NCBI GenBank assembly: GCA_020351835.1
Contig: CP070669.1
Location: 2,107,918-2,124,978 of the forward strand
DNA: 17,061 nucleotides
From: Nitrospirota bacterium
GTDB taxonomy: Bacteria; Nitrospirota; Thermodesulfovibrionia; Thermodesulfovibrionales; BMS3Bbin05
Reading direction: 5' to 3'
A program made the position numbers and the translations under genes. Shown here piece by piece: positions 2,842 through 17,061 of the stretch. The notes beneath the pieces are model-generated. The model made no database searches, had not been told where the DNA came from, and saw nothing but the letters and a program-made list of their open reading frames with translations. How positions within the stretch are numbered: position 1 is the first letter of the stretch; every line of letters starts with the position of its first letter.

Positions 2842-3447
2842 TCAGGTCTTCACCACATAACTGTTCAGAGTATCTACCACTTTTTTTGCCTCGGCATCGG
2901 AAGTAGTCGTGAAAACGACCTGATCGCTGTCTGCAAAGCGGGCAACTACGTTATAGAACTCCTTTACCTCTCCAAAGCCCGGGATCACAGTCCCGTGCTG
3001 AAGCGCTATCTTCTCTACCACGGCCACGCCATCAGGGTTTTCGGGCTCTATCCTTATATATTCGACATCGAACTGTCTTAGTTCGCTAAAGTCTTTTCCA
3101 ATGACCCTGCTTCCCAGGTTCCTTTTAAGGGTAAGAGTGACGACACCTGACCCCTTGTCGACCTCGGTAATAAGAACGGGGGCCTTGAATATGAACGTCC
3201 GGGACAACGGGAATATTATCACAAATATGACCGCTGCAACCAGGTAATGTATAAGACCGATCTCTCCAAGAACAGCCATAGAAATGAGATATATAACGAT
3301 AAACACAGCCGACACAAAACTTGAAGCGAGTTCCTTATTGAATATACCGCTATGAAGGACACTGCCCCTGTCCACCTTAAACGATGATGTCTGAAGCATT
3401 ACACTGTCCGCTCCTGTCCTTATCTCATGTCCTCCTTCAAGTCCCAC
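2842..3447 (-). CDS. Conserved membrane protein of unknown function inserted between carA and carB. The annotated start is GTG; an internal ATG at 3397-3399 is an alternative start.
   Basis: Open frame of 201 aa filling the carA-carB gap. Two hydrophobic segments ([22 protein letters not shown] and [17 protein letters not shown]) are followed by a soluble domain. Short spacing to both neighbours. Confidence 0.75.
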
Positions 3448-9777: not shown

Positions 9778-10086
9778 ATGAAAAGATATAAATCACTTAT
9801 ACCGCTACTCCTGGTCAGTATATTCACTTTTTTTGTTATCGTGCCGGTCAATATTGCTGAGTCAGGTGATGACTGGAAGGATGAACTGAGAGAAGTATGC
9901 TCAAAGGTCCAGATAGCGGATGAGCTCAGTATCAAGGAGCTTCAGGACCTCATAGCTCAGGCAGATGAGCTGACGATCAAGATAAGCACATCAGGGGACA
10001 GAAGGATGAAGATATTCGTGATGAGACTTCAGAAGTGCAAGTCATTTTTTGAGTTTACGATAGAGACAAAAGAGCCAAAGAAGTGA
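9778..10086 (+). CDS. Small exported protein of unknown function
   Basis: 102 aa with signal-peptide-like N-terminus MKRYKSLIPLLLVSIFTFFVIVPVNIAES, charged helical remainder with two cysteines, convergent with the next gene. The overlapping reverse ORF 9717-9935 looks less plausible. Confidence 0.6.
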   Translation: MKRYKSLIPLLLVSIFTFFVIVPVNIAESGDDWKDELREVCSKVQIADELSIKELQDLIAQADELTIKISTSGDRRMKIFVMRLQKCKSFFEFTIETKEPKK

Positions 10087-10100
10087 ACCTGCCGTGTCTG

Positions 10101-11810
10101 TTACTGGGTGCCTATACCACCGACAACAATTGAAGAGTACTTACCTGCAGATACGTCACTTACGACAGATACATCCCACATTCTGACCGGTGCAGGCTTG
10201 ACAGGCTGGTCATGCAGGTCCTTACCCCATACCCATGTAGTCCCGTCGTTCATAAGTGCCAATGTATGATACATACCGGCCGAAACCTTCTTAATACTTC
10301 CTACCCCCGGTATCTTAAAGGCTACCGAACCGTTTGCGTCCTTTTTCCCGAGCTGACCGAACTCATTGCCTCCCCAGGCCCAGACCGAACCGTCCTTCTT
10401 AAGAGCTACGGTATGATAAAGCCCTGCCGATATCCCTATCATCCCTGACAGGCCTGGAACCTTAATTGGCGATGTCCTCATCTTTCGTGACCTGTCCCCC
10501 AGTATTCCGTTAATGTTCCAGCCCCAGGCCCAGACCGAACCGTCAGAACCCTGCGCTACCGTGTGGTGAAGTCCGGCCGAGGCGTTCTTTATGCCTGTAA
10601 GTCCCTTTACATTCACCGGGGCCTCCCTTGATCTAGTCGAACCGTCACCCAACTGCCCCTGGACATTCCATCCCCAGGTGAACACTGATCCGTCCTGCTT
10701 TACGGCCACATTATGGAACATTCCTGCATCTACAGAAACTATGTTATTCAGGCCTTTCACTTTGACAGGTTCATTACTGTCCCTGGTCGACCCGTTACCA
10801 AGCTGACCGTAAGAGTTACCGCCCCATGCCCACACGGACCCGTCAGCGCTGAGAGCTATTGTATGGTACATGCCTGCAGAAACATCCGTTACCCTCATCA
10901 GGTCCTTCACCAGCACCGGGATCTTACTGTCTATGTTGTCGCCGTTGCCAAGCTGTCCACGGTTGTTGCGCCCCCATGTCCAGGCCGATCCATCTGATTT
11001 GATGGCAACAGAATGGTCTACTCCCGAAGCGACACTGATCACGTCTTCCATTCCGCCGATAGGCAAAAGGCCCTCCCTGCTATTATTGCTCCCATCTCCC
11101 AACTGTCCATATTCGTTAAGGCCGCCTGTCATCACCGCACCGGCGACTGCTTTTTTAGGCATCCAGCTCGAACGGACCGGCCACAGGAACTTGTAACTGC
11201 AGGCTGACATATAGTCTATTGTCATCTCTCCGGATGCGATATCAAGGATCCATACGTAGTCGATTATATCCCTGCCGGTAGACGCCGACCAGTAAAAATG
11301 GTTCTGTACACCGTCAAAGGGATGTCCAACCTGAAGAGCAGGATAGAACTTTGACCTGTCTATAAGGGTCTGAAGCTCGTTTATCGCCGGGAGCCTCCAG
11401 TCCGTATATCCGAAATTAGGTCTTATACCGCTGTTCATCTCCTGGATGTACTGTCTGGCACCAAGCCATGGAAGAGGAAGTTTGTGTATATTGGCGTCCT
11501 TCATCCATATAAGCCCGGTATCCCTGTCGAGTACGGTACCGTCCCCATTGTCCGCGAACCTGTGAGAGGTGCCGGAAGAGACCTTTTGAGTGCTTTTCTT
11601 AGACTGAACCTTGCCGGTCTTCTTCTCTGCAGCTGTAGATTGGATTGCAAATGTAAGCGAAAAGAACACGATGGTGACCATGCAGATAAACCTGATCAAA
11701 GGGATTTTTCTTTCGATATCAATCATTTTTATTAGCTCAATACCCTTGTTAACACAAAAACCGGCTTTATTGTAATGAAAGCCGGTCGTCAATATCAAGC
11801 GCTCATACAT
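10101..11810 (-). CDS. Exported DUF1566 (Lcl C-terminal-like) + RCC1/BLIP-II-type beta-propeller repeat protein. The likely start is the internal ATG at 11724-11726.
   Basis: Hydrophobic signal sequence IPLIRFICMVTIVFFSLTFAIQSTAA. DUF1566-like segment RFADNGDGTVLDRDTGLIWMKDA...YTDWRLPAINELQTLID...YWSAST...LWPVRS. Several RCC1 units of type VSAGMYHTIALSADGSVWAWGGNSYGQLGNGSTRDSNEPVKVKGL. Confidence 0.9.
   Translation of the reverse strand: MYERLILTTGFHYNKAGFCVNKGIELIKMIDIERKIPLIRFICMVTIVFFSLTFAIQSTAAEKKTGKVQSKKSTQKVSSGTSHRFADNGDGTVLDRDTGLIWMKDANIHKLPLPWLGARQYIQEMNSGIRPNFGYTDWRLPAINELQTLIDRSKFYPALQVGHPFDGVQNHFYWSASTGRDIIDYVWILDIASGEMTIDYMSACSYKFLWPVRSSWMPKKAVAGAVMTGGLNEYGQLGDGSNNSREGLLPIGGMEDVISVASGVDHSVAIKSDGSAWTWGRNNRGQLGNGDNIDSKIPVLVKDLMRVTDVSAGMYHTIALSADGSVWAWGGNSYGQLGNGSTRDSNEPVKVKGLNNIVSVDAGMFHNVAVKQDGSVFTWGWNVQGQLGDGSTRSREAPVNVKGLTGIKNASAGLHHTVAQGSDGSVWAWGWNINGILGDRSRKMRTSPIKVPGLSGMIGISAGLYHTVALKKDGSVWAWGGNEFGQLGKKDANGSVAFKIPGVGSIKKVSAGMYHTLALMNDGTTWVWGKDLHDQPVKPAPVRMWDVSVVSDVSAGKYSSIVVGGIGTQ
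10110..11090 (-). repeat. Degenerate in-frame tandem repeat array encoding roughly 50-residue RCC1-type units (approximate boundaries, about 7 units)
   Basis: Recurring (D/N)ASAG.YH.VAL..DGSVWAWG.N..GQLG.G......P..V.GL in the translated minus strand. Confidence 0.85.
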
Positions 11811-11932: not shown

Positions 11933-13357
11933 ATGACAATCAAATCTAAGTACTCTCCATTAATCGCGATCATCTTCTTTCTGGCCATCGGTGTTAATTT
12001 CGCATTCGCTGCTAATATGAGCGAGGACTTCGCATTTAAGATCTCGTTAGAGAACCACCTGGAGAAGAGGCTGAAACACATAATCACCGAGATCACCGGA
12101 AGCGACAGGGGTGTCATCATAATCAATGCCGATATCGGCACGGTCAAGGGCGGTGATTCCAACAAAGGAAGTATAACAAAGAAAAAGAGCCAGGATGCGC
12201 TAGTATTGCCCGGAGTTCCGGTAAAGAAAGAGTTCGGTACGGGCCTTAAGGAGACTGCTGAGCTTCTCTTCCCCGGAGCGGGCGGCAGTAAATATAAGGT
12301 AAACAAAATGAGCGTCTCCATATGGCTTGATAAAGGGCTTTCACAGTCAATTGTAGACCTTGTAGATAACCTTGCAAAGCAGGTTGTCGGTTACAACGAG
12401 ACGAGAGGGGATAAGGTTGAAATAGTTCCGATCGACTTCAAGGGAGAGAAGTTCTACTGGTCCTCGATATTCTATCCCAAGAACCTTTTCATACTAGCAC
12501 TTGGCCTTGCGGCGGCCCTTTTCTTTCTCGCTGGAGCGTCGTTCCTGTCGGACCCTCTTAAGAACCTTTCAAACGCAATTGCTTCGGTCGACTGGGACCA
12601 GGTAAGGGGCGCAAACGCAGGGATAGAAGCATATAGCCCCAGCTACGAGATGGAAGAACCCGGAATAAGCAGTGATATTACTGGAGCATACGATGCAGGC
12701 GAGCAGCAGCCTTTCTCTTTCATATCCGAGAGAGACCTCTCTAACCTGTCATATCTTCTTAAAGACAGATCGGCTGAGGATATAGCAACGGTAGCTAACT
12801 TCCTCGAGATAGATCTGGCGGCAAAATTGCTCGAATCTTTCGGCACGGATGAACAGGCAGAGGTTGCCCTGCACCTTAGCAATGAGAAGGTCGACCCGGA
12901 CGGGGTAAAGAAGCTCGAGTCCGAGATAAGAGAACAACTAAGCTACGTTGTCGGGGGAGAGAGGAAGTTCATATCGCTCATGAGACTTTCGGATGATGAT
13001 GTCAGGGAAAAGGCTATGGGCATGATGGAGCAGAAGGACAGGGATACCGCATCCCGACTGAAGACCAGGGTAAAGAGCTTCGATGATACAATATCAGATC
13101 TTCCGGCACAGGGCATAAGGGCACTTTACAGAAGGACCAACCCTCTCATCTTCGCGCAGATCGTAAAAGGCTCGTCAGATAAGGTAATAGAGAAGATCCT
13201 GGGATCGCTCAGTGAGGGCGCGGTCGAAAGGCTCAAGCAGGAGATGGAGCTCAGCCAGCCTCTTTCACCCGGACGCCTTCGCAAAGAAAGAATAAACCTC
13301 ATGATGCGCCTTGCAAGCCTTATGGATGAGGGAGCAATAGAAGGAGTGAACAACTGA
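11933..13357 (+). CDS. Exported/membrane FliF C-terminal-domain + FliG fusion protein (rotor-like)
   Basis: SD GAGAGGGAG before ATG. aa 1-27 signal peptide. aa ~38-70 LENHLEKRLKHIITEITGSDRGVIIINADIG resembles the FliF EKRV...VRVxVNADVDF segment. aa ~123-170 VNKMSVSIWLDKGLSQSIVDLVDNLAKQVVGYNETRGDKVEIVPIDF resembles the FliF C-terminal AVGYDxxRGDxVxVVNMPF block. TM at aa ~184-205. aa ~262-472 is FliG-like, including GG..KFISLMRLSDDDVREKAMGMM, LKTRVKSFDDTISDLPAQGIRALYRR and KGSSDKVIEKILGSLSEGAVERLKQEME...INLMMRLASLMDEG. Confidence 0.82.
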   Translation: MTIKSKYSPLIAIIFFLAIGVNFAFAANMSEDFAFKISLENHLEKRLKHIITEITGSDRGVIIINADIGTVKGGDSNKGSITKKKSQDALVLPGVPVKKEFGTGLKETAELLFPGAGGSKYKVNKMSVSIWLDKGLSQSIVDLVDNLAKQVVGYNETRGDKVEIVPIDFKGEKFYWSSIFYPKNLFILALGLAAALFFLAGASFLSDPLKNLSNAIASVDWDQVRGANAGIEAYSPSYEMEEPGISSDITGAYDAGEQQPFSFISERDLSNLSYLLKDRSAEDIATVANFLEIDLAAKLLESFGTDEQAEVALHLSNEKVDPDGVKKLESEIREQLSYVVGGERKFISLMRLSDDDVREKAMGMMEQKDRDTASRLKTRVKSFDDTISDLPAQGIRALYRRTNPLIFAQIVKGSSDKVIEKILGSLSEGAVERLKQEMELSQPLSPGRLRKERINLMMRLASLMDEGAIEGVNN

Positions 13358-13358
13358 T

Positions 13359-14135
13359 ATGGATTTTATGACTATCATAGGACTGCTCCTCGGCGGCGCA
13401 ACGGTTTATCTCGTAATGCTTCAGGGAAATATTCTTGACATGGTACTTAACCCTGTCGCCGCACTGCTCGTGTTTGGAGGAACTTTCAGCGCTACACTAA
13501 TAGCATATCCGTGGGACCTTATAAAGCAGACCGTTCCATCTTTCAGACTTATGTTCTTCCCTAAGAGGAACACATATGAATATCTTGAGGAGGTCGTTGA
13601 GTCGATGACCTCATTGGCAGAGAAGGCGAGAAGACAGAGCATAGAAAGCCTTCAGGGAGACCTTGGCAAGATAGAGAGCAAGTTCTTTTCGCATGGCATG
13701 CAGATGGTTATAGATGGCCTGGACCCGGCCATAGTCAGGGATAACATGGAAAAAGAGATCCTGTATACCAGACAGAGCTTCCAAAAAGTGTGCGGAGTGT
13801 TCCGTACAATGGCAACACTTTCTCCGATATTCGGGCTTCTCGGTACCCTCATAGGAATAGTCGGGGTCCTCCGCAATCTTGCTGACCCTGCATCTATGGG
13901 AAGCAATATGGCAATCGCTATAACGACCACATTTTATGGTATATTCGCCGCAAACTTTCTTTTTCTGCCGATCTCCATAAAGCTGAACGAACACAGTGAA
14001 CGGGATGTCCTGATCAAGGAACTTATAGCAGAAGGCATTATTGCCATTCACAGCGGTGACCTGCCGCTCATAGTCAGGAAGAAACTCAACGCATTTCTTT
14101 CATCCCACATAAGGGAAAAAAGCGAAAGCAAATAA
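13359..14135 (+). CDS. MotA-like proton/sodium channel stator protein
   Basis: 258 aa: NPVAALLVFGGTFSATLIAYPW, LAEKARRQSIESLQGDL, VIDGLDPAIVRDNMEKEI, TMATLSPIFGLLGTLIGIVGVLRNL...MAIAITTTFYGIFAANFLFLPISIKL. Starts 1 nt after the previous stop. Confidence 0.95.
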   Translation: MDFMTIIGLLLGGATVYLVMLQGNILDMVLNPVAALLVFGGTFSATLIAYPWDLIKQTVPSFRLMFFPKRNTYEYLEEVVESMTSLAEKARRQSIESLQGDLGKIESKFFSHGMQMVIDGLDPAIVRDNMEKEILYTRQSFQKVCGVFRTMATLSPIFGLLGTLIGIVGVLRNLADPASMGSNMAIAITTTFYGIFAANFLFLPISIKLNEHSERDVLIKELIAEGIIAIHSGDLPLIVRKKLNAFLSSHIREKSESK

Positions 14136-14818
14136 TGCTCCTTAAGCGTATCTATTCCGACCAGCACAGAAAAAGGTCGAGCCCATTGTGGCTCATCATA
14201 TTCTCCGACATGAGCACTAATCTCATGCTCTTCTTCCTTATACTCTTCGCCATGACAAGGATGAGCGATCCCGAGAGGCAATTGATGATAGAGGGAATGG
14301 AGCATGCGGTAAGCGATGAGGTAAGGAAGACCGAGCTTAAAGGAGAAAAGCTCCTGAGGCAGATCAAGGATGAAGATGCCATCAGTAACCTGCGGAACGC
14401 AATAACATACGGCAAACTGGCCGGCCACGCAAAACTGGAAGTTGACGAGAACGAGGTAAAGGTCACACTGAACCTGCCGCGTTTCTTTTCTATCGGAAGT
14501 GCGGAACTGAACGACAATATTACCGATGCACTGTCAAGTCTTGCGGAGCCTCTGAGCCGCTTTCCTAATGACATTGTCATAGAGGGCCATACCGATAACG
14601 TGCCTGTAAGGGGCGGGAGATACCGATCGAACTGGGAGCTGTCCGTAGCTCGCGCGGTGAGCGTTATAGATTTCTTTACCAAAAGGGGATTATTGCCGGA
14701 ACAGCTAATATCAGCAGGGTACGGTGAGTACCACCCTGCATACCCTAACGACACTGAAGATAACAGGTCGCGCAATCGACGGATAGAGATCAACATAATA
14801 AGGAAACAGAGGCTATAG
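14135..14818 (+). CDS. MotB-like stator protein with C-terminal OmpA peptidoglycan-binding domain, TM aspartate retained
   Basis: WLIIFSDMSTNLMLFFLILFAM (D25 at the MotB D32 position) and OmpA-like domain IVIEGHTDNVPVRGGRYRSNWELSVARAVSV...NRSRNRRIEI. Overlaps the motA stop by 1 nt (TAATG). Confidence 0.93.
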   Translation: MLLKRIYSDQHRKRSSPLWLIIFSDMSTNLMLFFLILFAMTRMSDPERQLMIEGMEHAVSDEVRKTELKGEKLLRQIKDEDAISNLRNAITYGKLAGHAKLEVDENEVKVTLNLPRFFSIGSAELNDNITDALSSLAEPLSRFPNDIVIEGHTDNVPVRGGRYRSNWELSVARAVSVIDFFTKRGLLPEQLISAGYGEYHPAYPNDTEDNRSRNRRIEINIIRKQRL

Positions 14819-14822
14819 CTAT

Positions 14823-15473
14823 ATGCTATCTTTTACTAAACTTATAATAGCTTCAGAAAGGGACCGCGATGACAGCTCGCTCTGGATGCTTCCCTACAGT
14901 ACCCTGATGCTTATACTGCTCATTTTCTTTGCAATCCTGTTTGTTGATTCATATAAGCAGTCAATAGACTATGAGATGGCTATTGCTGAACTTGACGATA
15001 CGAACGAAGGCCTGAAGAAAGAGATAATCCTTGCCAAGAACATGCAGAAGTATATAAACGATAATAATATGAACGATATCGCGGAGATTAAAGTATCGGC
15101 TCGTTTTATAAAACTTGACCTCAAAAGCCCGGCTCTGTTTGAAAGCGGTTTGGCAGACCTTAAACCGGGTATACTGCCTCTGTTCAGAGAGCTAGCGGAT
15201 AACCTGAAGAATGTAGATAACACTGTCGTGGTAGAGGGCCATACCGATAACATCCCTATACATAACAGGTTCTTCGATTCGAACTGGGAGCTTTCATCTG
15301 CCAGGGCATTCAGTGTATTATATTTCCTTATAAATAAAGAGATCGATCCGGAAAGACTTATTGCCCACGGTTTCGGCGAGTTCAGGCCGATCTTTTCGAA
15401 CGATACAGCGGATAACAGGGCTCGTAACAGACGGATCGAGATCACTATCATAAGGAAGGGTAGAGAAGCATGA
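14823..15473 (+). CDS. Second MotB-like protein with OmpA domain, TM aspartate replaced by Thr
   Basis: WMLPYSTLMLILLIFFAILF followed by VVVEGHTDNIPIHNRFFDSNWELSSARAFSVLYFL...DNRARNRRIEITIIRK. Starts 4 nt after the first MotB-like gene. Confidence 0.9.
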   Translation: MLSFTKLIIASERDRDDSSLWMLPYSTLMLILLIFFAILFVDSYKQSIDYEMAIAELDDTNEGLKKEIILAKNMQKYINDNNMNDIAEIKVSARFIKLDLKSPALFESGLADLKPGILPLFRELADNLKNVDNTVVVEGHTDNIPIHNRFFDSNWELSSARAFSVLYFLINKEIDPERLIAHGFGEFRPIFSNDTADNRARNRRIEITIIRKGREA

Positions 15474-16768
15474 GGAAGATAGCGGTCATACTTGTGCTCT
15501 TAATGAGCTTTTCATCGTCGGCTGATGCCATTACTGCCCGACAGCTGGAGAAGGTAGAGGAACTCAAGACAGAGGCTTTAGAGCTGCTTCGCAAAAAGGA
15601 GTTCGATAAAGCTGTCCCGGTCCTGAATGAGATACTCGCAATAGACCCTCTTGAAAAGACAGCTAACAGGTACCTTAACCTTGCCAAGCAACAGGCGATG
15701 GAGCCTTTCTGCCAGGAGGCGGCCGAGGCTTTCATGAAAGATGATTATGCCAGCGCTATAGACTCATGGGAAAAGATATTAAGGATGAACCCTGGGGATC
15801 AAAGGTTCTCACGCCTGATAGAGATCACAAAGAACCTCGTCTCTGACAAGACCATCGATGAGATGTATTCGCGTGCGAATGACTTTCTAGAAAAGGGCGA
15901 CAGGAACTCGGCTGCCAATGAGCTCGAGAAGATCCTTTCCATTAAACCTTACGACCGGCGTGCACGAGAAATGCTTGCCAAGGCCAAACAGTCGGTCTCA
16001 AGCGCAAAGACCAAGAAACACTACGATCAGGCTGACCAGTATATGAAGCAGAAGAAATACGACCTGGCCATAGAGGAGTGGAACAAAGTACTCGCGATAG
16101 ATGACAGCCAGCAAGCCGCAAAAAGGCTTATTGCATCGGCCATAAGAGAGAAGATACAGATACAGTACTCCGAGGCTGAGAAACTTTACAGGAAGGGCGA
16201 TTACCTTTCCGCGCGCGACAACTACTACAAGATCCTGGTCGATAATCCGACCGATCTTGATGTAAAGACGATCATATCCAACCTTGACGATACCACAAAG
16301 ATCGTAAACCGGATGGATGAAAGAGGAAAGGCTTACGATATCATGAGGACCTCTCTATCCAACCATATAGCGATAGACGGCAACAAGAAAGCGGCCGTAG
16401 CTGCTGCATGGTACGCAGTACAGATAGACCCCCAGAACACTACGGCACTTGCTATCAAGAACTACATGGAAATGAAGTATGCAACTCTCGTAGCTACAAT
16501 GGAACCCCCTATTGGTTCTATGAACATAATCGACCAGTATCTGTTCGCCGCCCTTAACCACATATATGAGGGGCGCTATGATATGTCGATACAGGAAACT
16601 GGGATAGTGATAGCGCTCGACCCGGACAGCCTTCTCGCATGGAAAAGGCTCGGATCGGCTTACTTTGCGATGGGAGAGAAGAAGAAGGCGCGTAATGCGT
16701 GGCAAAGGGCGCTGAAGATAGACCCCAATGATAAAGAGCTGAAACAGTTCATTAAACAGGCAAAATGA
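15470..16768 (+). CDS. Exported tetratricopeptide-repeat protein
   Basis: Signal peptide MRKIAVILVLLMSFSSSADA and multiple TPR units, e.g. YDQADQYMKQKKYDLAIEEWNKVLAIDDSQQAA, YSEAEKLYRKGDYLSARDNYYKILVDNPTD and LLAWKRLGSAYFAMGEKKKARNAWQRALKIDPND. 4-nt overlap with the upstream gene. Confidence 0.93.
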   Translation: MRKIAVILVLLMSFSSSADAITARQLEKVEELKTEALELLRKKEFDKAVPVLNEILAIDPLEKTANRYLNLAKQQAMEPFCQEAAEAFMKDDYASAIDSWEKILRMNPGDQRFSRLIEITKNLVSDKTIDEMYSRANDFLEKGDRNSAANELEKILSIKPYDRRAREMLAKAKQSVSSAKTKKHYDQADQYMKQKKYDLAIEEWNKVLAIDDSQQAAKRLIASAIREKIQIQYSEAEKLYRKGDYLSARDNYYKILVDNPTDLDVKTIISNLDDTTKIVNRMDERGKAYDIMRTSLSNHIAIDGNKKAAVAAAWYAVQIDPQNTTALAIKNYMEMKYATLVATMEPPIGSMNIIDQYLFAALNHIYEGRYDMSIQETGIVIALDPDSLLAWKRLGSAYFAMGEKKKARNAWQRALKIDPNDKELKQFIKQAK

Positions 16769-17061
16769 TGACAAACACAAAATTACTATATAGACTTCTG
16801 CTTTTGGTCCCGGTCGTTATGTTCACGATATCCGTTACCGGCAATGTATCGGCTGCAGACAAGAAAGATTGTCTTGAATGCCATGGAGCCATGACCAAGG
16901 CGACAATAGTGCACAAAGCTATCGATAAAGGGTGCAACTCCTGTCACGGCAACTCACACGCAGGCGGATCGCCGCAGCTTGCACTTAAAGGTGACCAGCC
17001 CAGGCTCTGTTATGACTGTCATAGATCCGGTCAGTTCAGAAAGAAGCACCAGCATGTGCCA
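16765..17061 (+). CDS. Exported multihaem c-type cytochrome (doubled-CXXCH-like), truncated by the right window edge
   Basis: Frame from ATG 16765 (or 16768) reads MMTNTKLLYRLLLLVPVVMFTISVTGNVSAADKKDCLECHGAMTKATIVHKAIDKGCNSCHGNSHAGGSPQLALKGDQPRLCYDCHRSGQFRKKHQHVP. Three CXXCH motifs follow a signal peptide, and it overlaps the TPR gene stop (ATGA). Confidence 0.9.
   Translation, partial: MMTNTKLLYRLLLLVPVVMFTISVTGNVSAADKKDCLECHGAMTKATIVHKAIDKGCNSCHGNSHAGGSPQLALKGDQPRLCYDCHRSGQFRKKHQHVP

Follow-up and report, generated by a model that had tools for sequence, protein, structure and literature searches.

The closest described counterpart of the system reported here is the flagellar motor's core, which consists of FliF, FliG and MotA5MotB2 stator units. 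RBM3 is the ring-building motif (RBM) of the FliF S-ring, and RBM1 and RBM2 surround the type III export gate in flagella. To our knowledge, flagellar-type MotAB stators have no known partner besides FliG, whose function is thought to be confined to the flagellum. In a 17,061-nt stretch of DNA from a Nitrospirota bacterium (hereafter the window; assembly GCA_020351835.1, contig CP070669.1, positions 2,107,918 to 2,124,978), we describe a single gene whose product joins domains of FliF and FliG in one polypeptide, followed directly by genes for a MotAB stator of its own. We consider it probable that this fusion protein is the rotor subunit of a self-contained, switchless, non-flagellar rotor-stator module driven by the proton motive force. 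Our observations concern domain homology, the make-up of the operon, conservation and the residues at the rotor-stator interface; from these we infer ring formation, rotation and output.

Set against the flagellar core, the module has the same succession of an RBM3-type domain and a transmembrane (TM) helix, the same FliG_M and FliG_C domains with a torque helix, a MotA of flagellar type, a MotB that carries the channel Asp, a plug and an OmpA-like domain, and the charge pair formed by FliG D289 and MotA R90. It differs in combining the rotor parts in one polypeptide rather than two, in beginning with a signal peptide-like segment instead of the first TM helix of FliF, and in lacking RBM1/RBM2, FliG_N and the EHPQR and MFXF motifs; the insert within its ring-building domain is ~50 aa long, versus ~110 aa for the beta-collar of FliF, and the R281-E98 charge pair is lost on both sides. 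Lacking RBM1 and RBM2, the fusion has nothing to enclose a type III export gate. Genes for FliM/FliN, rod, hook and filament are not found nearby, and a second MotB and a tetratricopeptide repeat (TPR) protein have been added.

Other known systems resemble the module in part. In Salmonella and Vibrio, FliF-FliG fusions that were engineered or arose spontaneously still form rings (PMC6079021, PMC11481574); in those fusions both partners are full-length and operate inside a complete flagellum, whereas the protein described here is a trimmed, natural combination of RBM3, TM helix and FliG_MC in a non-flagellar operon. SpoIIIAG of sporulation and the RBM rings of type III systems share the RBM fold, an insert between the first two strands and, as predicted for the fusion, the building of large rings, which in those systems are periplasmic or intermembrane; they carry no FliG domains, are not accompanied by MotAB, and are far less similar to the fusion than is the RBM3 of FliF. 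The AglRQS, GldLM (type IX secretion system, T9SS), ExbBD-TonB, TolQR-TolA and ZorAB motors share the use of an ion-driven stator for a non-swimming task in the envelope. Their force passes via the B-type subunit or a TonB-, TolA- or GldM-like partner; none is known to use a FliG rotor, and the stator of the module belongs to the flagellar clade rather than to their generic one. In a full-text literature search, neither a natural fusion of FliF with FliG nor its operon was found described, although the literature does hold stator phylogenies (PMC12505986) and a survey that includes orphan rotor proteins (PMC12199754). The rotor-stator pair itself is known; what appears to be new, judging from the genes, is its trimmed and fused form in a non-flagellar setting.

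Domain composition of the fusion protein

The fusion gene and the parts of its product lie at the following window positions, all on the + strand.

11933..13357, +, fusion gene, 474 aa, with an ATG start; the stop codon is included
11933..12010, +, signal-peptide-like segment (aa 1-26), with a K-rich n-region, a 13-residue h-region and FAFA/AN
12020..12439, +, periplasmic RBM3-like domain (aa 30-169), from Pfam, PDB profile, Foldseek and secondary structure
12467..12553, +, single TM helix (aa 179-207), from hydrophobicity; helix 182-217 in the model
12554..12706, +, cytoplasmic linker (aa 208-258), in place of the FliF C-tail and FliG_N
12707..12952, +, FliG middle (ARM_M) domain (aa 259-340), starting at an invariant PFSF motif
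13025..13342, +, FliG C-terminal domain with torque helix (aa 365-470), from Pfam and the family profile

The open reading frame (ORF) is preceded at 7 nt by a GAGGGAG ribosome-binding site, and its product is predicted to begin with a signal-peptide-like stretch, after which come a domain of the FliF RBM3 type, one TM helix, a linker without ordered structure and finally FliG_M and FliG_C. Three Pfam profiles exceeded their gathering scores: YscJ_FliF_C (PF08345; aa 120-169, E=2.1e-6, 28.7 bits versus 23.8), FliG_M (PF14841; aa 272-340, E=3.2e-7, 30.9 bits versus 25) and FliG_C (PF01706; aa 365-470, E=4.8e-12, 46.5 bits versus 23.3). The same profiles matched 21, 21 and 22, respectively, of 22 family members surveyed. 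A preliminary description of this DNA had proposed a natural one-polypeptide fusion of a FliF module, a TM helix and FliG_M/FliG_C, together with this Pfam comparison, and the profiles and the fold comparison below agree with that proposal. It had also considered that the similarity might be only of a generic armadillo (ARM) or MgtE_N kind; this explanation fails because the FliF and FliG matches exceed their cut-offs and the MgtE_N match, which is weaker, does not. The scores for the NCBIfam equivalog models of fliG (TIGR00207; 48.5 bits, cut-off 226.7) and fliF (TIGR00206; 22.5 bits, cut-off 129.75) fell far short of the cut-offs. As judged from its predicted domains, the protein contains parts of both FliF and FliG, yet is an orthologue of neither.

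Hydrophobic segments occur at aa 6-30 and aa 179-207. The first fits a cleavable signal peptide, and A-x-A sites equivalent to FAFA/AN are present in homologues of the fusion; cleavage would leave the second as the only membrane span. This segment contains NLFILALGLAAALFFLAGASFL, the stretch quoted in the preliminary description, whose single TM helix ahead of the FliG domains is recovered by both hydrophobicity and the modelled helix. Its placing of a signal peptide where FliF has its N-terminal half is likewise supported, in the form of a signal-peptide-like segment.

Between these segments, only ~150 periplasmic residues are available, and the RBM1/RBM2 profile (YscJ_FliF, PF01514) found no match in the fusion at E<=1. 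A profile of the periplasmic region (aa 27-182) searched against PDB matched FliF 9yh6 over the whole domain (E=2.2e-4) and Salmonella FliF at 239-279 and 410-438, which are both halves of RBM3; the match to SpoIIIAG (5wc3) was weaker (E=0.015). The top 18 Foldseek matches in PDB were FliF RBM3/S-ring structures only (E=5.5e-5 to 8e-4, probability 1.00, TM-score ~0.5). AlphaFold2 (AF2) placed secondary structure in the order alpha(30-55)-beta(61-70)-beta(121-133)-alpha(138-152)-beta(161-167), with an unmodelled insert (72-119) between the first two strands; this ~50-aa insert splits the halves of the domain and carries an invariant LPGVPxKK motif. On the strength of the RBM3 profile matches, the S-ring structures found by Foldseek and the near-constant YscJ_FliF_C match in the family, we identify the retained FliF module as a predicted S-ring-building motif with a shortened collar insert and without RBM1/RBM2. 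The preliminary description had the ring-building domains missing, a view that does not hold for RBM3, both halves of which are kept.

The FliG-derived part begins beyond a linker that leaves no space for FliG_N, because only ~50 largely disordered residues separate the TM helix from FliG_M; aa 226-256 have a predicted local distance difference test score (pLDDT) below 50 and fall in variable alignment columns. Consistent with this, the FliG_N profile (PF14842) found no match in the fusion. It matched 7 of the 22 relatives, and the sole reported position (in L006) falls on the FliG_M region. When a profile of 26 homologues was compared with PDB, Thermotoga maritima FliG_MC (1lkv) was matched over aa 259-468 at E=3.9e-30, so that the earlier assignment of FliG middle and C-terminal domains only is upheld.

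We used the 1lkv profile alignment to map E. coli FliG residues onto the fusion. K264 is kept as K412, and D289 corresponds to E437, an invariant Glu. R281 is replaced by an invariant Gly (G429), D288 by Q436, a position that is E in some members of the Nitrospirota lineage, and R297 by S445. The GG hinge of FliG is kept. The FliM-binding motif EHPQR reads R-S-A-E in the fusion and R-T-P-Q in many relatives, and the MFXF switch hinge (MFVF) reads V-K-S-F, with an invariant Lys.

The co-encoded stator and its interface with the fusion

Starting with the fusion, six genes of the same strand adjoin or overlap each other (a 1-nt gap, overlaps of the ATGA type); those downstream of the fusion are as follows.

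13359..14135, +, MotA, 258 aa, starting 1 nt past the fusion stop; Pfam MotA_ExbB and MotA_N
14135..14818, +, MotB1, 227 aa, with the channel Asp (IIFSD), MotB_plug and an OmpA-like peptidoglycan-binding domain; overlapping the stop of motA at its start
14823..15473, +, MotB2, 216 aa, a MotB paralogue with Thr for the channel Asp (WMLPYSTLML) and an OmpA-like domain
15470..16768, +, periplasmic TPR protein, 432 aa, with a signal peptide (Pfam, hydrophobicity)
16768..17061, +, start of a multihaem cytochrome with a signal peptide and the haem motifs CLECH, CNSCH and CYDCH; cut by the window end

Compared with PDB, the window MotA matched a solved MotA (9lu9) over its full length at E=1.5e-48, followed by MotA of Clostridium and Bacillus and PomA of Vibrio. 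Its scores for the NCBIfam MotA, MotP and PomA models lay below the cut-offs, as did that of MotB1 for its equivalog model. Homology thus assigns the protein as a predicted stator A subunit of flagellar type, and a search for homologues returned, among the matches listed, only orthologues of the module's own MotA.

For the rotor-stator contact, we compared 39 non-redundant fusion/MotA pairs at the canonical positions, where MotA R90 pairs with FliG D288/D289 and MotA E98 with FliG R281, pairings that are cited in bioRxiv 10.1101/2024.07.22.604496. In 37 of the 39 loci the D289-equivalent is Glu and the R90-equivalent Lys or Arg; in the same 37 the R281-equivalent is Gly and the E98-equivalent is Gln, Ala, Ser or Thr, never acidic. 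The window MotA conforms, with R91 as the kept R90-equivalent and Q99 in place of E98. Nitrospirota MotA proteins have an invariant Glu three residues ahead of the E98 position, and the fusions have a mostly conserved Arg (Leu in two loci) four residues past the R281 position. In L026 and L027, which are adjacent to flagellar genes, the D289 position is not acidic, and MotA E98 is kept in L026. Because one charge pair is kept and one is lost, each on both partners, the pattern argues for a co-adapted and presumably working rotor-stator interface rather than a decaying relic.

The two MotB paralogues differ at the channel position. Every functional MotB known to us carries the ion-binding Asp, yet MotB2 has Thr there in every Nitrospirota orthologue, and the second MotB of Elusimicrobiota-type loci has Asn. 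In L029 and L031 the Asp is kept in both paralogues, which rules out MotB2 as a universally "dead" subunit. Because of this distribution of Thr, Asn and Asp, there are hints of a MotB1/MotB2 heterodimer that needs one Asp only. The Agl motor employs two different B-type subunits.

The TPR gene directly adjoins the fusion or the stator genes, upstream or downstream, in most lineages examined. The start codon of the cytochrome gene overlaps the TPR stop, and the window ends after three haem motifs; full-length orthologues (for example L007 14900-16357) are very dense in haem, with ~490 aa, ~19 CXXCH motifs and nine Paired_CXXCH_1 units (E=2.9e-112). In related loci the cytochrome gene is often followed by two six-haem c7-like genes.

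Occurrence of the fusion and its gene neighbourhoods

The window protein is identical to hypothetical protein JSV21_11255 of a Nitrospirota metagenome-assembled genome (MAG). We found 51 full-length homologues at 35-64% identity to it, all with the same architecture and independent of one another, so that the misassembly that the preliminary description had allowed for does not explain the gene. Nineteen GTDB species representatives carry the fusion, nearly all of them labelled Nitrospirota, and relatives in Elusimicrobiota (~26% identity) are ~580 aa long. Across 26 Nitrospirota-type homologues, 40 alignment columns are invariant.

An exhaustive profile search over 1.84 billion cluster representatives (50% identity clusters) gave 666 clusters at E<=1e-30, the best 150 all under E=3e-65. 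Among the top matches, 137 representatives were at least 429 aa long; in 136 of these, residues 140-290 include a hydrophobic segment, 97 show another one at the N-terminus, and 107 contain an LPGxP-type motif. By this predicted layout, the fusion architecture is found in at least 136 protein clusters (50% identity) of uncultured bacteria. Where the sources carry an annotation, it is either "hypothetical protein" or "flagellar motor switch protein FliG", and none of the cluster members that were looked up came from a cultured organism, all being from uncultured samples. When the 54-sequence alignment A4 served as the query for homologues, hardly any new members were retrieved, because the word filter dominated. 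Hundreds of independent assemblies hold intact ORFs with the fusion architecture, at 20-64% identity.

The Elusimicrobiota-type fusions (L006 10001-11755, P0053, and relatives P0052-P0057) are ~100 aa longer than the window protein and have an extra C-terminal TM helix. Their matches to FliG_C and to full-length YscJ_FliF_C are stronger than its own; the L006 relative matches the full YscJ_FliF_C profile (1-147).

Most loci contain a constant set of fusion, MotA and two MotB, usually with an adjacent TPR gene, and the variable partners are secreted or surface proteins. The gene orders observed were:

Nitrospirota: small protein, RCC1-like, fusion, MotA, MotB, MotB, TPR, 19-haem cytochrome, two 6-haem cytochromes
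L048 and L077 (35-37% identity to the window protein): same core, with a T2SS-F/PilC-like gene (type II secretion system; E=2.7e-61) and 3-6 pilin/pseudopilin genes in place of the cytochromes
Elusimicrobiota type (~25 loci): fn3/CHU_C/FlgD_ig surface protein, TPR, fusion, MotA, MotB, MotB, histidine kinase, response regulators
L029: fusion, MotA, MotB, MotB, kinase, 1248-aa Kelch propeller
L028 and L030: TPR, then a fusion with a C-terminal TPR; no adjoining stator
P0058/P0165 subgroup (L027/L026): TPR, fusion, MotA, one MotB, amid flagellar genes

The PilC/GspF-like platform and pilins of L048 (14900-17510) and L077 (15055-20974) occupy exactly the position of the cytochromes. Within 10 kb in these two loci, the labelled genes include no assembly ATPase, though no search was aimed at ATPases. 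A FliG ring driving a type IV filament platform in L048 and L077 is speculation on our part. L029 has a Kelch propeller rather than the RCC1-like propeller of Nitrospirota.

Flagellar genes were sought with full Pfam tables for L002-L006 and elsewhere, in loci of at least 5 kb, by BLAST against eight flagellar reference proteins. The 17-kb window holds none besides the module, and none were found within +/-10 kb of the module in ~50 other loci, including all those of Nitrospirota and Elusimicrobiota type. The neighbours of the P0058/P0165 subgroup include FliK, FlhB-like, FlgF, FlgG, FlgA, FlgH, FlgI, FliA and FliE.

Possible mechanism, alternative explanations and other window genes

As a rotor-stator module, the system could work as follows. 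Export and cleavage of the signal peptide would yield a single-pass protein whose periplasmic RBM3-like domain, by homology, would oligomerise into an S-ring-like ring, while its TM helices would be arranged as a ring within the inner membrane. FliG_M and FliG_C, being covalently attached, would then form a FliG ring below the membrane with no need for FliG_N, FliM or FliN. Co-encoded stator units of the MotA5MotB2 type, held to peptidoglycan by MotB, would use a proton or sodium gradient to push the torque helix of FliG_C and turn the ring. Rotation would probably be unidirectional, because the FliM-binding motif and the MFXF switch motif are absent. MotB2, having lost its Asp, is probably either the partner of MotB1 within the stator or an additional anchor to peptidoglycan, and the TPR protein, present almost everywhere, is probably a scaffold on the periplasmic side. 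The work output would lie in the envelope or outside the cell and probably depends on lineage; in the Nitrospirota described here it may be linked to the multihaem cytochromes and the beta-propeller protein. The "different, reduced rotor" of the preliminary description remains reasonable as to a reduced rotor, which is most likely a non-flagellar one rather than that of a reduced flagellum.

More tentatively, the fusion, MotA, MotB1/MotB2 and TPR proteins could together be an autonomous ion-driven rotary machine that powers an envelope device varying between lineages. Its cargo might be multihaem cytochromes here, the PilC-like platform and pilins in the sister lineages, and large CHU_C-type surface proteins in the Elusimicrobiota type. 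Such a machine, which we put forward as a possibility somewhat short of even, would have been built from the flagellar motor's core without export apparatus, rod, hook or filament.

Several observations weigh against a non-flagellar rotor-stator module. MotB2 is without the essential Asp in the lineage of the window; two of the five classical charged residues of FliG, as well as MFXF and EHPQR, are not conserved; and the P0058/P0165 subgroup sits among flagellar genes. The AF2 monomer models are of moderate quality only (pLDDT 71.5 and 63.7) and leave the collar insert unmodelled. The absence of flagellar genes, moreover, refers to the loci alone, namely the 17-kb window and +/-10 kb around the module elsewhere.

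The flagellar neighbourhood of that subgroup, where TPR, fusion, MotA and MotB genes stand directly beside flagellar genes, is an argument that the fusion is an accessory or alternative part of a true flagellar motor, either as an extra membrane ring or a stator-recruiting ring around the MS-ring or as the rotor of a second system, with the adjacent MotAB as the flagellar stator. The flagellar type of MotA agrees with this, TPR proteins scaffold stators in Campylobacter-type motors, and cultured Thermodesulfovibrio species are flagellated. However, the subgroup is divergent, with its one MotB, its non-acidic D289 position and the E98 kept in the L026 MotA, and the ~50 loci free of flagellar genes within +/-10 kb are not accounted for. 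The module also carries its own stator genes, and the fusion cannot replace FliF or FliG in a flagellum, because RBM1/RBM2, FliG_N and the FliM-binding motif are lacking. We regard an accessory role, including that of MotAB as the flagellar stator, as unlikely. Less likely still is a non-rotating, membrane-bound FliG-like decoy or sensor that binds MotAB as a regulatory device for ion-gradient sensing, dissipation or signalling. Loss of the channel Asp from MotB2 in two lineages and of the switch and FliM-binding motifs would suit such a device, as would the histidine kinases, response regulators and a GGDEF protein that directly follow the module in Elusimicrobiota-type loci and L029. Yet Nitrospirota loci are without signalling genes, MotB1 keeps its Asp, plug and peptidoglycan-binding domain, in L029 and L031 neither paralogue has lost the Asp, and conservation of the fusion is highest in the RBM3 module and at those positions of the torque helix that lie opposite MotA R90.

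That the gene arose by misassembly or by a frameshift joining fliF to fliG, or is a functionless remnant of a lost flagellum, is effectively refuted. Some non-motile species do keep isolated rotor proteins (PMC12199754), and frameshifted copies occur in two MAG loci, L019 and L021. Against this stand the intact ORFs of hundreds of assemblies, the 40 invariant columns, the conserved partner genes in a tightly coupled operon, and interface changes that are coordinated on the fusion and MotA. Anti-phage defence of the Zorya type was also considered and ruled out: PADLOC gave only generic MotB-ZorB similarity, with no ZorA-type match and none at all for MotA, the fusion or the TPR protein.

The non-flagellar module, as a widespread fusion with a co-adapted stator, suggests a second, undescribed use of the flagellar rotor-stator core, because the parts for export, switching and filament have been shed and the rest travels with cytochromes, pilins and surface proteins. 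With three to five proteins, it would be a minimal system in which to study torque generation, would make testable the role of isolated rotor proteins in non-motile genomes, which recent surveys have raised as a question, and would provide a new angle on flagellar origins. In the window organism, the module may link an ion gradient to the deployment of extracellular electron-transfer proteins. Were the autonomous machine to prove real, it would represent a new class of rotary machine in bacteria and a living "half a motor", bearing on how the rotor-stator pair could have existed before or apart from the flagellum.

Two genes upstream of the fusion are also conserved beside the module in Nitrospirota loci.

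10101..11810, -, secreted RCC1-like beta-propeller with an Lcl_C domain (Pfam), divergent from the fusion
9778..10086, +, small secreted protein, 102 aa, with no Pfam match

The remaining genes of the window are housekeeping genes (TusA, SLT transglycosylase, nadA, pyrR-pyrB-pyrC-carA and carB) and an ORF of 201 aa. A scan with Rfam for regulatory RNA upstream of the fusion yielded only a PyrR site elsewhere in the window. This PyrR binding site (RF00515; 7382-7485, -; 54.7 bits versus a gathering score of 54) lies upstream of pyrR-pyrB-pyrC-carA and represents ordinary attenuation of a pyrimidine operon. The 201-aa ORF (2842-3447, -) has a hydrophobic stretch and no Pfam match, and it occupies an unusual place between carA and carB, the latter of which runs past the left end of the window.

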